From NCBI RefSeq assembly GCF_053078305.1, contig NZ_CP166879.1: a DNA stretch of 64,000 nt; one strand, given 5' to 3'. This document shows positions 29,875 through 35,032 of this stretch, one piece after another. Every line of letters starts with the position of its first letter. Position 1 is the first letter of the stretch. The position numbers were made by a program, and so were the translations under genes. The notes under the pieces are model-generated. The model searched no databases. It saw nothing but the letters and a program-made list of their open reading frames with translations, and was not told the DNA's origin.

Positions 29875-30494
29875 GGAACGGGCTGCTGGCGCTGATTTGC
29901 TGGCTGTGTTGTGTTGTTGCCCATAGCGAAATGCTGAATGTCGAACAATCCGGGCTGTTTCGCGCCTGGTTTGTGCGCATTGCTCAGGAACAGCTCCGCC
30001 AGGGGCCAAGTCCACGCTGGTATCAGCAGGATTGTGCGGGCCTGGTGCGATTTGCAGCGAACGAGGCGCTGAAAGTTCACGACAGTAAATGGCTAAAAAA
30101 TAACGGTTTCTCTAACCAGTATTTGCCGCCAGAGATGACGCTAACACCTGAACAGCGGCAACTGGCGCAAAACTGGAATCAGGGGAACGGGAAAACCGGC
30201 CCCTACGTGACCGCGATTAATTTGATTCAGTACAACAGCCAGTTTATTGGCCAGGACATAAACCAGGCGCTGCCTGGCGATATGATTTTTTTCGATCAGG
30301 GCGATGCCCAGCACTTAATGGTCTGGATGGGGCGTTACGTCATCTACCACACCGGAAGCGCCACGAAAACTGACAACGGAATGCGCGCAGTCAGTCTGCA
30401 ACAATTTATGACATGGAAGGACACCCGATGGATACCCAACGATTCCAATCCCAATTTCATTGGCATTTATCGTTTAAATTTTCTGGCGCGATAG
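29871..30494 (+). CDS. yfaT: DUF1175-type protein YfaT
   Basis: ORF 29844..30494; ATG at 29871 overlaps the yfaA stop (ATGA). Signal-peptide-like N-terminus. Confidence 0.75.
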
Positions 30495-33400
30495 CAGCGT
30501 GCTTGTCCCTGTCTCTTGTGGGAACAGGGCTTGCTAATGCTGATGATTCGCTTCCTTCCAGTAACTATGCGCCGCCCGCAGGGGGAACATTCTTTTTGCT
30601 TGCTGACAGCAGTTTTAGCAGCAGTGAAGAGGCGAAAGTGCGACTGGAAGCGCCGGGGCGTGATTATCGGCGCTATCAGATGGAAGAGTACGGCGGCGTG
30701 GACGTTCGCCTGTATCGTATTCCTGACCCGATGGCATTTTTGCGCCAGCAGAAAAACCTGCATCGCATTGTGGTGCAACCGCAATATCTGGGCGACGGGC
30801 TGAACAATACGCTGACCTGGCTGTGGGATAACTGGTACGGCAAATCTCGCCGCGTGATGCAGCGTACTTTCTCTTCTCAGTCACGGCAGAATGTGACTCA
30901 GGCATTACCCGAATTACATCTCGGCAATGCCATTATTAAACCTTCCCGTTATGTACAGAACAACCAGTTTTCCCCGCTGAAAAAATATCCCTTGGTGGAA
31001 CAGTTCCGTTATCCACTATGGCAGGCTAAACCGGTCGAGCCGCAGCAAGGGGTAAAACTGGAAGGCGCATCCAGCAATTTCATCTCGCCGCAGCCGGGTA
31101 ACATTTATATTCCTCTCGGCCAACAAGAGCCGGGACTGTACCTCGTCGAGGCGATGGTTGGTGGGTATCGGGCGACGACGGTGGTGTTTGTTTCCGATAC
31201 CGTGGCGCTTAGCAAAGTGTCAGGCAAAGAGCTTCTGGTGTGGACCGCGGGTAAAAAACAGGGTGAAGCGAAGCCCGGCTCAGAGATCTTGTGGACTGAC
31301 GGTCTTGGCGTGATGACCCGCGGTGTGACCGATGACAGCGGTACCTTGCAGTTACAACATATATCGCCAGAACGTTCATACATTCTGGGTAAGGATGCTG
31401 AAGGCGGCGTTTTTGTCTCCGAGAACTTCTTCTACGAAAGCGAAATCTACAACACCCGCTTGTATATTTTTACCGATCGCCCGCTATATCGCGCAGGCGA
31501 TCGTGTCGATGTTAAAGTGATGGGCCGCGAGTTCCACGATCCGTTGCATTCATCCCCCATCGTCAGCGCCCCGGCGAAGCTTTCGGTGCTGGACGCTAAC
31601 GGCAGTCTGTTGCAAACCGTCGATGTCACGCTGGATGCGCGCAATGGCGGGCAGGGAAGTTTCCGCCTGCCAGAAAATGCCGTTGCCGGAGGTTATGAGT
31701 TACGTCTTGCTTACCGCAATCAGGTCTATAGCAGCAGTTTTCGCGTGGCAAACTACATCAAGCCACATTTCGAGATTGGTTTAGCTCTCGACAAAAAAGA
31801 GTTCAAAACTGGCGAAGCGGTCAGCGGCAAACTGCAACTTCTCTACCCGGATGGTGAGCCGGTAAAAGATGCCCGCGTGCAGTTAAGTTTGCGCGCTCAG
31901 CAATTATCAATGGTTGGTAACGATTTGCGTTATGCCGGACGTTTTCCCGTGTCGCTGGAAGGCAGTGAAACGGTGTCCGACGATAGCGGTCATGTGGCGT
32001 TAAATCTCCCCGCCGCCGATAAACCGAGCCGTTATTTGTTAACCGTCTCCGCCAGTGACGGCGCGGCGTATCGCGTCACCACCACCAAAGAGATCCTCAT
32101 TGAACGCGGCCTGGCGCATTACTCTTTAAGTACCGCCGCACAATACAGTAATAGCGGCGAGTCGGTTGTGTTCCGTTATGCCGCGCTGGAATCTTCAAAA
32201 CAGGTTCCTGTTACGTATGAATGGTTGCGTCTCGAAGACCGCACGAGCCATAGCGGAGAGCTACCGTCTGGCGGCAAATCCTTTACCGTCAATTTCGATA
32301 AACCTGGCAACTACAATCTGACGTTACGCGATAAAGACGGCTTAATTCTCGCCGGGTTAAGCCATGCAGTCAGCGGTAAGGGCAGCATGTCGCATACTGG
32401 TACGGTAGATATCGTGGCAGATAAAACGCTGTACCAGCCTGGCGAAACCGCGAAGATGCTGATTACCTTCCCGGAGCCAATTGATGAAGCATTATTGACG
32501 CTGGAACGCGATCGCGTGGAACAGCAGTCGCTGCTTTCGCATCCGGCAAACTGGCTAACGCTACAACGTTTAAACGATACCCAGTATGAAGCCCGGGTTC
32601 CAGTGAGCAATTCCTTTGCGCCTAACATCACTTTTTCGGTGCTGTATACCCGTAACGGTCAGTACAGTTTTCAGAACGCCGGGATCAAAGTTGCCGTTCC
32701 CCAGCTGGATATCCGGGTGAAAACGGACAAAACTCATTACCAGCCTGGTGAACTGGTCAATGTCGAATTAACTTCGTCGCTGAAAGGTAAACCTGTTTCT
32801 GCGCAGCTAACGGTAGGCGTGGTCGATGAAATGATTTACGCGCTGCAACCAGAAATCGCGCCGAATATCGGCAAATTTTTCTATCCGCTGGGGCGTAACA
32901 ATGTGCGTACCAGCTCCAGTCTGTCGTTTATCAGCTACGACCAGGCGCTCTCCAGCGAGCCGGTTGCGCCTGGCGCAACTAACCGCAGCGAGCGGCGAGT
33001 AAAAATGCTTGAACGTCCACGGCGTGAAGAGGTGGATACCGCGGCATGGATGCCGTCACTCACAACCGATAAACAAGGCAAAGCGTATTTCACGTTCCTG
33101 ATGCCTGATTCGTTAACCCGCTGGCGTATCACCGCGCGTGGGATGAACGGCGACGGGCTGGTCGGGCAGGGGCGTGCTTATCTGCGTTCGGAAAAAAATC
33201 TCTACATGAAGTGGAGTATGCCAACGGTGTATCGCGTGGGCGACAAACCGGCGGCAGGACTGTTTATCTTCAGTCAGCAGGATAACGAACCGGTGGCGCT
33301 GGTGACTAAATTTGCAGGCGCTGAGATGCGCCAGACGCTGACGCTGCACAAAGGGGCGAATTATATTTCGCTGGCGCAGAACATTCAGCAATCTGGCTTG

Positions 33401-35032
33401 TTAAGCGCAGAACTGCAACAAAATGGGCAAGTGCAGGACAGCATTAGCACAAAACTGTCTTTTGTGGATAACAGCTGGCCCGTTGAACAGCAGAAAAATG
33501 TCATGCTCGGCGGTGGCGATAACGCGCTGATGTTGCCCGAGCAGGCGAGCAATATCCGGCTACAAAGTAGTGAAACGCCGCAGGAGATTTTCCGTAACAA
33601 TCTTGATGCGTTAGTCGATGAACCGTGGGGTGGCGTGATCAACACCGGTAGCCGTCTGATCCCGCTCAGTCTCGCCTGGCGTTCGCTTGCCGATCATCAA
33701 AGTGCCGCCGCTAACGACATTCGTCAGATGATTCAGGATAACCGTCTGCGGCTGATGCAACTGGCGGGGCCCGGAGCGCGCTTTACCTGGTGGGGTGAAG
33801 ATGGCAATGGTGACGCCTTCCTTACGGCATGGGCATGGTACGCCGACTGGCAGGCCAGCCAGGCGCTCGGCGTAACGCAACAACCGGAATACTGGCAGCA
33901 TATGCTCGACAGTTATGCCGAGCAGGCAGATAACATGCCGTTATTGCATCGGGCGCTGGTGCTGGCGTGGGCACAGGAGATGAATCTGCCGTGCAAAACG
34001 TTGTTGAAAGGGTTGGATGAAGCTATCGCCCGGCGCGGAACTAAAACTGAAGATTTCTCTGAGGAAGACACCCGCGATATCAATGACAGCCTGATCCTCG
34101 ATACACCGGAATCTCCACTGGCAGATGCGGTGGCAAACGTCTTAACCATGACGTTGCTGAAAAAAGCGCAGTTGAAGTCCACGGTGATGCCACAGGTTCA
34201 GCAATATGCGTGGGATAAAGCGGCAAACAGCAATCAGCCGCTGGCGCACACGGTAGTGCTGCTCAATAGCGGGGGCGACGCTACCCAGGCGGCTGCTATT
34301 TTAAGTGGTTTGACCGCTGAGCAATCCACTATTGAGCGCGCGCTGGCCATGAACTGGCTGGCGAAATATATGGCGACAATGCCTTCGGTTGTGTTGCCTG
34401 CGCCTGCGGGCACATGGGCCAAACATAAGTTAACTGGAGGGGGCGAATACTGGCGTTGGGTTGGTCAGGGCGTGCCGGACATTCTCTCTTTTGGTGACGA
34501 ATTATCGCCGCAAAATGTGCAGGTCCGCTGGCGTGAAGCGGCAAAAACGGCTCAACAAAGTAACATTCCGGTGACCGTTGAACGCCAGTTGTATCGGCTT
34601 ATCCCCGGTGAAGAAGAGATGAGCTTTACTCTGCAGCCGGTGACCAGCAATGAGATTGACAGCGATGCGCTGTATCTCGATGAAATTACGCTTACCAGCG
34701 AGCAGGATGCAGTTCTGCGCTATGGTCAGGTGGAAGTACCGCTCCCGCCGGGAGCCGACGTTGAGCGCACAACATGGGGCATTTCAGTCAATAAACCCAA
34801 CGCCGCGAAACAGCAGGGGCAATTGCTGGAAAAAGCGCGTAATGAAATGGGCGAACTGGCCTATATGGTGCCGGTGAAAGAACTGACGGGAACGGTCACT
34901 TTCCGCCATTTGCTGCGCTTCTCGCAAAAAGGGCAATTCGTTCTGCCTCCTGCTCGTTATGTGCGTTCCTATGCACCTGCGCAGCAAAGTGTTGCGGCAG
35001 GGAGCGAATGGACCGGGATGCAGGTGAAATAA
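30428..35032 (+). CDS. yfaS: alpha-2-macroglobulin family protein YfaS, full length
   Basis: One uninterrupted 1539-aa frame (30413..35032). Start could be ATG 30413 or 30428 (MDTQRFQSQ... then signal-peptide-like stretch). Confidence 0.85.

Follow-up and report, generated by a model that had tools for sequence, protein, structure and literature searches.

The window analyzed here, a 64,000-nt stretch of contig NZ_CP166879.1 (NCBI RefSeq assembly GCF_053078305.1), is part of an Escherichia coli chromosome, reversed relative to the K-12 map, and carries yfaS as a single uninterrupted gene within the five-gene cluster yfaA, yfaT, yfaS, yfaQ, yfaP (yfaATSQP). The cluster is very probably an ordinary, functional-looking allele, and its central product, YfaS, a macroglobulin of the type encoded by the mag operon of Pseudomonas, with a proposed mechanism modeled on that of MagD. 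In K-12, the gene is disabled by a single nonsense mutation found nearly exclusively in laboratory strains of that lineage. Across the wider family, the degenerate thioester site of YfaS appears to be a derived trait rather than a property of the operon type.

The yfaS reading frame and the lesion in K-12

The frame containing yfaS, on the + strand, is open without interruption between 30413 and 35032, according to both the open reading frame (ORF) list and the translation, and encodes 1539 amino acids from its first ATG. The likely start of yfaS is the second in-frame ATG, at 30428, from which the gene spans 4605 nt (30428-35032) and encodes a YfaS of 1534 residues; a Shine-Dalgarno-like GAAGGA motif lies 6 nt 5′ of this codon, and the start of K-12 b4500, itself 4605 nt long, is its equivalent. 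An earlier note on this DNA, written from the sequence alone, had described one uninterrupted frame, which was borne out, but it had paired a length of 1539 residues with a start at 30428; these do not belong together, because 1539 residues run from 30413 and 1534 from 30428. The last of the three candidate or annotated starts (ATG 30413, ATG 30428, and GTG 30518) is the one that PGAP uses in other E. coli genomes; it lies 90 nt inside ATG 30428 and yields 1504 residues, so that the export signal, or hydrophobic N-terminus, is lost in that annotation. The gene and the codon that distinguishes it from its K-12 counterpart are as follows:

30428..35032, + strand: yfaS, intact thioester-less alpha-2-macroglobulin homolog, 1534 aa
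34529..34531, + strand: codon 1368 of yfaS, TGG here and TGA in K-12; the sole disabling difference between the two genes

The yfaS gene of K-12 MG1655 (b4500, NC_000913.3 2329798-2334402) carries a pseudogene flag and shares locus, length, and neighbors with the window gene. Alignment of the two was ungapped, the 4605 nt containing 80 mismatches (98.3% identity), and revealed one internal stop in K-12, at codon 1368, which reads TGA in place of the TGG (Trp) of the window; besides W1368*, the two proteins differ at 20 amino acids. The K-12 lesion is a nonsense mutation, W1368*, and not the frameshift that the earlier note had expected, which is ruled out by the equal length, the absence of insertions or deletions in the alignment, and the single in-frame TGA. 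The statement of the earlier note that yfaS is a pseudogene in K-12 was itself correct. The stop falls inside the C-terminal beta domain of YfaS, and 167 residues are lost, which takes away most of that domain and the whole Pfam bMG10 match. Separately, clustering of a protein library at 50% identity left the E. coli YfaS cluster represented by a 1367-aa protein, the truncated K-12 product, so users of this library meet a broken YfaS as the type sequence.

Alleles were counted with 55-nt megablast probes centered on the variable base, such that each 28-nt seed had to span that base. Of 5426 complete E. coli genomes, 364 gave the TGA allele, at 100% identity over the 55-mer, and at least 4347 gave the TGG allele. 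Nearly all of the 60 TGA carriers listed were K-12-type laboratory strains or their derivatives, specifically including MG1655, W3110, DH5alpha, XL1-Blue, JM109, HB101, EMG2, and NCM3722; to that extent, W1368* is confined to the K-12 lineage.

Intact yfaS across E. coli

In total, yfaS was present in 5383 of the 5426 complete genomes, with at least 80% of the gene covered in 5362. A systematic sample of 15 genomes was drawn by taking each fourth row from a list of 60 evenly spaced entries; PGAP annotated an intact yfaS in 14 of them, one of the 14 with an in-frame 69-nt deletion, and the gene was broken in the other genome, P276M. Comparison of the window gene with 20 other alleles by the Nei-Gojobori method gave ratios of non-synonymous to synonymous substitution (dN/dS) of 0.07-0.13. 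Because of these counts and ratios, an intact, constrained yfaS is regarded as the norm and K-12 as the exception. The window yfaS is a known gene in its usual state, and that much was already known; the noteworthiness that the earlier note had implied for an intact yfaS does not hold up against a TGA allele restricted to 364 of 5426 genomes and the intact genes of 14 of the 15 sampled genomes. As a reference for this locus, K-12 is atypical, and work on YfaS in E. coli needs either a strain with the TGG allele or a single-base repair of K-12.

Other lesions of yfaS were encountered in individual strains, specifically GAA>TAA at codon 1436 in MIN9 (E1436*), CAA>TAA at codon 1377 in MIN11 (Q1377*), a +2-nt frameshift in RIVM_C037884, and deletion of the gene in PSJ-12. 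The K-12, MIN9, and MIN11 alleles differ pairwise at just 2-3 nt, their three different stops included; the MIN11 allele was found in 1 genome and the MIN9 allele in 3. Selection for C-terminal truncation was considered for the stops at codons 1368, 1377, and 1436, and no claim is made for it, as the sampling was biased: the first sample, of eight genomes, favored variants inside the 55-mer probe, the MIN11 stop lies within that probe, and K-12 was given, leaving MIN9 as the only unbiased case. Neighbors of yfaS are damaged in some strains as well: the yfaQ annotation of O157:H7 Z1836 has an internal stop, and 00_3305 has a yfaT truncated at its N-terminus.

Domains, predicted fold, and thioester site of YfaS

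YfaS had been proposed in the earlier note to be an alpha-2-macroglobulin (A2M) homolog, and both domain matches and the predicted fold agree. Pfam matches to MG2 (residues 344-440, 92.9 bits), A2M_BRD (661-806, 65.1 bits), A2M (871-953, 46.4 bits), and bMG10 (1409-1517, 27.6 bits) were all above curated cutoffs, and this combination of macroglobulin (MG), bait-region, and A2M domains places YfaS, at the level of sequence, in the alpha-2-macroglobulin/complement C3 superfamily. A phmmer search of solved structures with YfaS (E≤0.01) produced marginal matches only, with the MG2 region of C5 and that of CD109, and missed ECAM; structure prediction with Foldseek was used for this reason. The AlphaFold model, covering residues 335-1534, had a mean predicted local distance difference test score (pLDDT) of 83.3 and a predicted template modeling score (pTM) of 0.74. 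Its top match in the PDB was native ECAM (5a42, E 1.4e-48, TM-score to the query [TMq] 0.64), followed by Salmonella A2M (4u48, TMq 0.62) and then by C5, A2ML1, CD109, and TEP1, with E-values ranging from 1e-36 to 1e-48; activated macroglobulin conformations matched the model far less well (TMq ~0.35). MG beta-sandwiches, a helical TED-like domain, and a C-terminal beta domain, the elements of the superfamily fold, were all predicted. As modeled, YfaS (335-1534) is of alpha-2-macroglobulin fold, and the following features were assigned to it and to its N-terminus:

30428..30541, + strand: predicted export signal of YfaS, the first 38 residues, then DD; Ala-x-Ala at -3 to -1 (ANA/DD), hydrophobic 19-mer at 18-36
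32897..33001, + strand: candidate bait region, residues 824-858, disordered, Arg/Lys-rich, between Pfam A2M_BRD and A2M
33578..34369, + strand: helical TED-like domain, residues 1051-1314, a predicted run of 13 helices (model segment 717-980), with a global fold match to A2M, C5, and TEP1
33629..33643, + strand: degenerate thioester site, G-G-V-I-N, residues 1068-1072, aligned to the G-C-x-E-Q of most family members
34415..35026, + strand: C-terminal beta-sandwich domain, residues 1330-1533 (model segment 996-1199), containing Pfam bMG10

Residues 824-858 (model segment 490-524) form the only long stretch of the model with pLDDT <50 and are a candidate for the bait. A CxEQ motif was found nowhere in YfaS, and the aligned site read GGVIN in 24 of 24 E. 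coli yfaS alleles. The protein has two cysteines, specifically Cys25 in the signal region, where the context I-A-A-C could form an alternative lipobox, and Cys1189, which lies in NLPCKTL.

The published classification of bacterial macroglobulins recognizes Type I, with a thioester and encoded next to pbpC, and Type II, without a thioester and encoded in an operon. In place of the Type I features, CxEQ in the TED and an adjacent pbpC, YfaS has GGVIN and is neighbored by yfaA, yfaT, yfaQ, and yfaP, and beyond these by gyrA and rcsC. The Type II combination of a bait region without CxEQ was found in sequence and model, as A2M_BRD and the disordered 824-858 stretch together with GGVIN. Judged by these features, YfaS is a thioester-less Type II (MagD-like) macroglobulin and not a Type I (ECAM-like) one; the earlier note had made no mention of the missing motif. 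The Type I proteins ECAM (YfhM) and Salmonella Sa-A2M (PDB 5a42, 4ziq, 4u48) are its best structural matches (for the native forms, TMq 0.62-0.64 with E-values between 1e-46 and 1e-48) and are likewise multi-MG-domain proteins, periplasmic, with a bait region and a TED; however, YfaS is just 15-18% identical to them, and phmmer at E≤0.01 misses them. ECAM has the motif CLEQ and a lipobox and adjoins pbpC (PMC3735191), whereas the motif of YfaS reads GGVIN and its gene belongs to the yfa cluster.

The yfaATSQP cluster and the mag operon

On the + strand of the window, the gene order is gyrA (25410-28037), yfaA, yfaT, yfaS, yfaQ, yfaP, and rcsC (37738-40587), and all five cluster genes are intact; the stretch gyrA-yfaATSQP is colinear with that of K-12, at 98% identity. 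Apart from yfaS, the cluster consists of:

28186..29874, + strand: yfaA, DUF2138, 562 aa (Pfam E 4.5e-288; NCBIfam PRK11410), MagB counterpart; same length and position as K-12 b2230
29871..30494, + strand: yfaT, DUF1175 (Pfam ‘MagC’), 207 aa (E 1.3e-58); signal peptide judged from its N-terminus
35033..36682, + strand: yfaQ, tandem DUF2300, 549 aa, GTG start (Pfam E 1.9e-89, two stretches), MagE counterpart
36687..37463, + strand: yfaP, DUF2135 (YfaP_C), 258 aa (Pfam E 4.6e-18), predicted signal peptide, MagF counterpart

The genes are tightly packed, as the earlier note had observed. The genes yfaA and yfaT overlap by 4 nt (ATGA at 29871-29874), yfaT extends 67 nt into yfaS, the yfaS stop codon (35030-35032) directly abuts the yfaQ GTG at 35033, and a 4-nt gap separates the end of yfaQ (36682) from the start of yfaP (36687); these junctions support translational coupling. 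All five products have an export- or anchor-like hydrophobic N-terminal segment, which in YfaA is a hydrophobic anchor at residues 12-32. Packing and export signals together fit a co-transcribed periplasmic module, in keeping with the reading first put forward in the earlier note. Two further domain matches were weak, specifically NLPC_P60 in YfaT (E 3.5e-4, under the curated cutoff) and a SpoIID-like stretch in YfaQ (E 7e-6). Of the five proteins, only YfaA had an NCBIfam match, and none had a match in PADLOC; Rfam had no match within 27900-37800, and a terminator consensus scan of the yfa region gave no usable signal.

For comparison with the mag operon, Pseudomonas species other than P. aeruginosa were used. 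The operon of P. fluorescens PfAR1 runs DUF2135-DUF2138-DUF1175-A2M-DUF2300-DUF2135, which is the published magABCDEF arrangement. Because the same Pfam families occur in the same order in the PfAR1 operon, YfaA was equated with MagB, YfaT with MagC, YfaS with MagD, YfaQ with MagE, and YfaP with MagF. The E. coli cluster contains the DUF2138, DUF1175, DUF2300, and DUF2135 genes that mark a Type II operon but has five genes against six in the mag operon: the counterpart of magA, the upstream DUF2135 gene, is the only one absent, and gyrA lies there instead. Likeness extends to the proteins. P. aeruginosa MagD, encoded in magABCDEF (‘Type II’; PMC3735191, PMC5764988, PMC12663445), has the same domain set and fold as YfaS; the neighbor families stand in the same order, DUF2138-DUF1175-A2M-DUF2300-DUF2135; and in both systems all products are apparently exported, with a hydrophobic anchor at the N-terminus of the DUF2138 partner. 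The A2M genes at 29 listed Pseudomonas loci encode proteins with 48-58% identity to YfaS in the best tblastn segment, or 51-54% where the match was full-length, and these relatives, like YfaS, have no thioester Cys (G-G-V-E-Q). The differences are that GGVIN in YfaS has lost the Glu and Gln that the GGVEQ of the Pseudomonas relatives retains, and that YfaS has two cysteines, with a possible lipobox around one of them, against none reported for MagD.

The thioester motif across the family

A phmmer search with YfaS residues 335-1534 against 1.84 billion representative sequences yielded 887 clusters at E≤1e-30, and 39 full-length homologs among the closest representatives, with 30-51% identity over the full length, were aligned. 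The motif G-C-x-E-Q was present in 31 of these 39, and the Cys was absent in 8; among the top 150, nearly all of the more distant long homologs had PYGCxEQT. All five GCxEQ homologs with readable contigs were encoded in a DUF2138-DUF1175-A2M-DUF2300-YfaP_C cluster, and the Massilia aquatica locus has the same five-gene operon with the motif GCVEQ. The rule that a multi-gene operon signifies the absence of a thioester thus fails across the family, because GCxEQ homologs share the five- or six-gene operon type.

In a species scan limited to one genome per species, relatives are named from among the matches listed, E. coli itself not among them. The YfaS relative of E. albertii was 90% identical and read GGVVN. 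Pseudomonas proteins were next closest, at 51-54%, and were all without Cys, reading GGVEQ except for GGVEH in one and GGVEE in one; Burkholderiales and other groups followed at 38-48% with GCxEQ. Over the 55 loci with a readable motif, the Cys was missing only in Pseudomonas, Escherichia, and one Magnetococcales metagenome-assembled genome. The loci of Massilia aquatica, Paraburkholderia, and Janthinobacterium have the same five-gene order as the yfa cluster, and their A2Ms are 38-48% identical to YfaS over the full length but, unlike YfaS, keep G-C-x-E-Q. Classified by sequence, such GCxEQ A2Ms in a mag-type operon fit neither published type, the operon being ‘Type II’ and the motif ‘Type I’. 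No other Enterobacterales were found among the best 80 YfaS relatives listed, and E. coli itself was likewise not in that listing.

From this distribution, the thioester-less state appears to be a derived trait common to Pseudomonas and Escherichia, further decayed in Escherichia, and not a property of the operon type. The published division into Type I (thioester, next to pbpC) and Type II (no thioester, operon) would then mix two independent characters, because most operon-type relatives keep the thioester motif. A fuller reconstruction, to which we assign about an even chance, is that the mag/yfa operon was ancestrally thioester-bearing and that Type II was derived within roughly one subclade, by Cys>Gly in Pseudomonas (GGVEQ) and with further change in Escherichia (GGVIN or GGVVN). 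If this is true, operon type and thioester status are separable, many ‘Type II-operon’ macroglobulins, in Burkholderiales among other groups, would trap their targets covalently, and the Escherichia and Pseudomonas clusters would share a most recent ancestor, possibly by way of horizontal transfer, of which the sequence similarities give hints. The distribution of the thioester across operon type is mildly new, although it may already have been described, and should be of modest use to the bacterial macroglobulin field; the intact state of yfaS itself matters little.

Proposed mechanism and alternative explanations

MagD is located in the periplasm, in association with the inner membrane (PMC3735191); once its bait is cleaved, it traps protease non-covalently, without a thioester, and it forms 1:1 complexes with MagA, MagB, and MagF, and depends on membrane-anchored MagB for its stability and localization (PMC5764988). 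It also protects P. aeruginosa against VgrG3 and Tae1, type VI secretion system effectors that target peptidoglycan (PMC12663445). By analogy, which gives the best model at hand for YfaATSQP, YfaS would be exported to the periplasm, as is MagD of P. aeruginosa, and held at the inner membrane by YfaA, whose N-terminal hydrophobic anchor resembles that of MagB, where it may act together with YfaT (NlpC/P60-like), YfaQ, and YfaP. An incoming enzyme would cleave the flexible bait, for which residues 824-858 are the candidate, whereupon YfaS would trap the enzyme non-covalently. Such trapping could shield the envelope against foreign proteases or against effectors aimed at peptidoglycan.

Several observations weigh against this assignment. 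A literature search returned only incidental mentions of E. coli yfaS, the abbreviation also denoting the Yale Food Addiction Scale, and found no biochemical or genetic data on YfaS. Identity between the protein and its Pseudomonas counterparts is only about one-half, its motif has lost not just the Cys but also Glu and Gln, and there is no magA. Anchoring of YfaS may differ from that of MagD because Cys25 lies in a possible lipobox. The physiological target of MagD is itself unsettled: VgrG3 is lysozyme-like, and the effectors act on peptidoglycan rather than being classical proteases (PMC12663445). As for expression, a consensus promoter scan found no sigma-70-like site 5′ of yfaA, and the region contained two promoter-like sites, both inside genes, against 6.9 expected from shuffles. 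Finally, the sporadic loss of yfaS in K-12, MIN9, MIN11, RIVM_C037884, P276M, and PSJ-12 implies that the gene is dispensable in some settings.

Three alternative explanations bear on YfaS and its K-12 allele. If YfaS were a thioester-dependent, ECAM-like Type I macroglobulin, it would bind proteases covalently, and the closeness of the model fold to native ECAM and Salmonella A2M, together with the GCxEQ kept by most relatives of the same operon type, would be as expected. This is refuted at the sequence level, however, and receives virtually no credence: CxEQ is missing, and the site reads GGVIN in E. coli (24 of 24 alleles) and GGVVN in E. albertii; the only other Cys, 1189, sits in the unrelated NLPCKTL; pbpC is not adjacent; and ECAM was missed by the sequence search of solved structures (E≤0.01). 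A further explanation concerns the contrast with K-12, which would be quantitative if K-12 yfaS were not fully dead, that is, if readthrough of a weak UGA-C stop by near-cognate tRNA-Trp restored the Trp and produced a little full-length YfaS. UGA is a leaky stop, read by tRNA-Trp and terminated less efficiently by the release factor 2 of K-12; here the TGA is followed by C and the ancestral codon was TGG (Trp), and 3′ of the stop there is no non-synonymous excess (10 synonymous vs. 3 non-synonymous codon differences). Still, readthrough usually amounts to a few percent at most, and the missing downstream decay is equally explained by a recent mutation, which makes this a highly improbable account.

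The remaining alternative, that yfaS is open but decaying, a spent relic whose thioester chemistry has been lost and which is heading toward a pseudogene across E. coli with K-12 further along, is unlikely. GGVIN has lost all three key residues, where the Pseudomonas relatives always keep Glu and mostly keep Gln; independent lesions have arisen in MIN9 (E1436*), MIN11 (Q1377*), RIVM_C037884 (+2-nt frameshift), P276M (broken), and PSJ-12 (deletion); and yfaQ in O157:H7 Z1836 and yfaT in 00_3305 are also damaged. Against this, dN/dS of 0.07-0.13 indicates purifying selection; yfaS occurs in 99% of genomes and was intact in 14 of the 15 from the unbiased sample; the nonsense alleles outside K-12 are rare (1 and 3 genomes), and thioester-less MagD still traps protease (PMC5764988).

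The surrounding window

Downstream of the yfa cluster, the window differs from K-12 in that the ato operon, which in K-12 lies between yfaP and rcsC (atoSCDAEB, 7.4 kb, 2319956-2327365), is absent, and ∼194 nt (about 37465-37658) separate yfaP from rcsC-proximal sequence. This ato-less junction recurs in 1536 of the 5426 complete genomes; O157:H7 is among them, as is GDSC2227PM, the closest genome.

The match to K-12 breaks off at 41440/41441, immediately upstream of rcsB, and gives way to a lambdoid prophage (window region 41438-64000). The prophage comes to within 3 nt upstream of the start codon of rcsB and thereby splits rcsB from rcsD; this rcsB-prophage junction was found in just 13 of the 5426 complete genomes, mostly human isolates of the Shiga toxin-producing E. 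coli type. Its genes include an integrase (41482-42771, − strand), a CI-like repressor (48816-49514, − strand), an anti-repressor, a helicase, a DNA methyltransferase (55276-58176), and a SASA/NanS-p-like esterase (60034-62055). The prophage partly resembles Shiga toxin (Stx)-converting phages, and the interval from 59360 to 60034 is too small to hold stx.

On the other side of the cluster, the region 11329-15163 has no K-12 counterpart save for 257 nt that match the K-12 yfaH pseudogene. The region contains a 368-aa ORF (11516-12622, − strand) with no Pfam match, an intact LysR-family regulator (13050-13928, − strand), and a major facilitator superfamily transporter (14080-15270, + strand). 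The yfaH region is the second case in which K-12 has a remnant where the window strain has whole genes.

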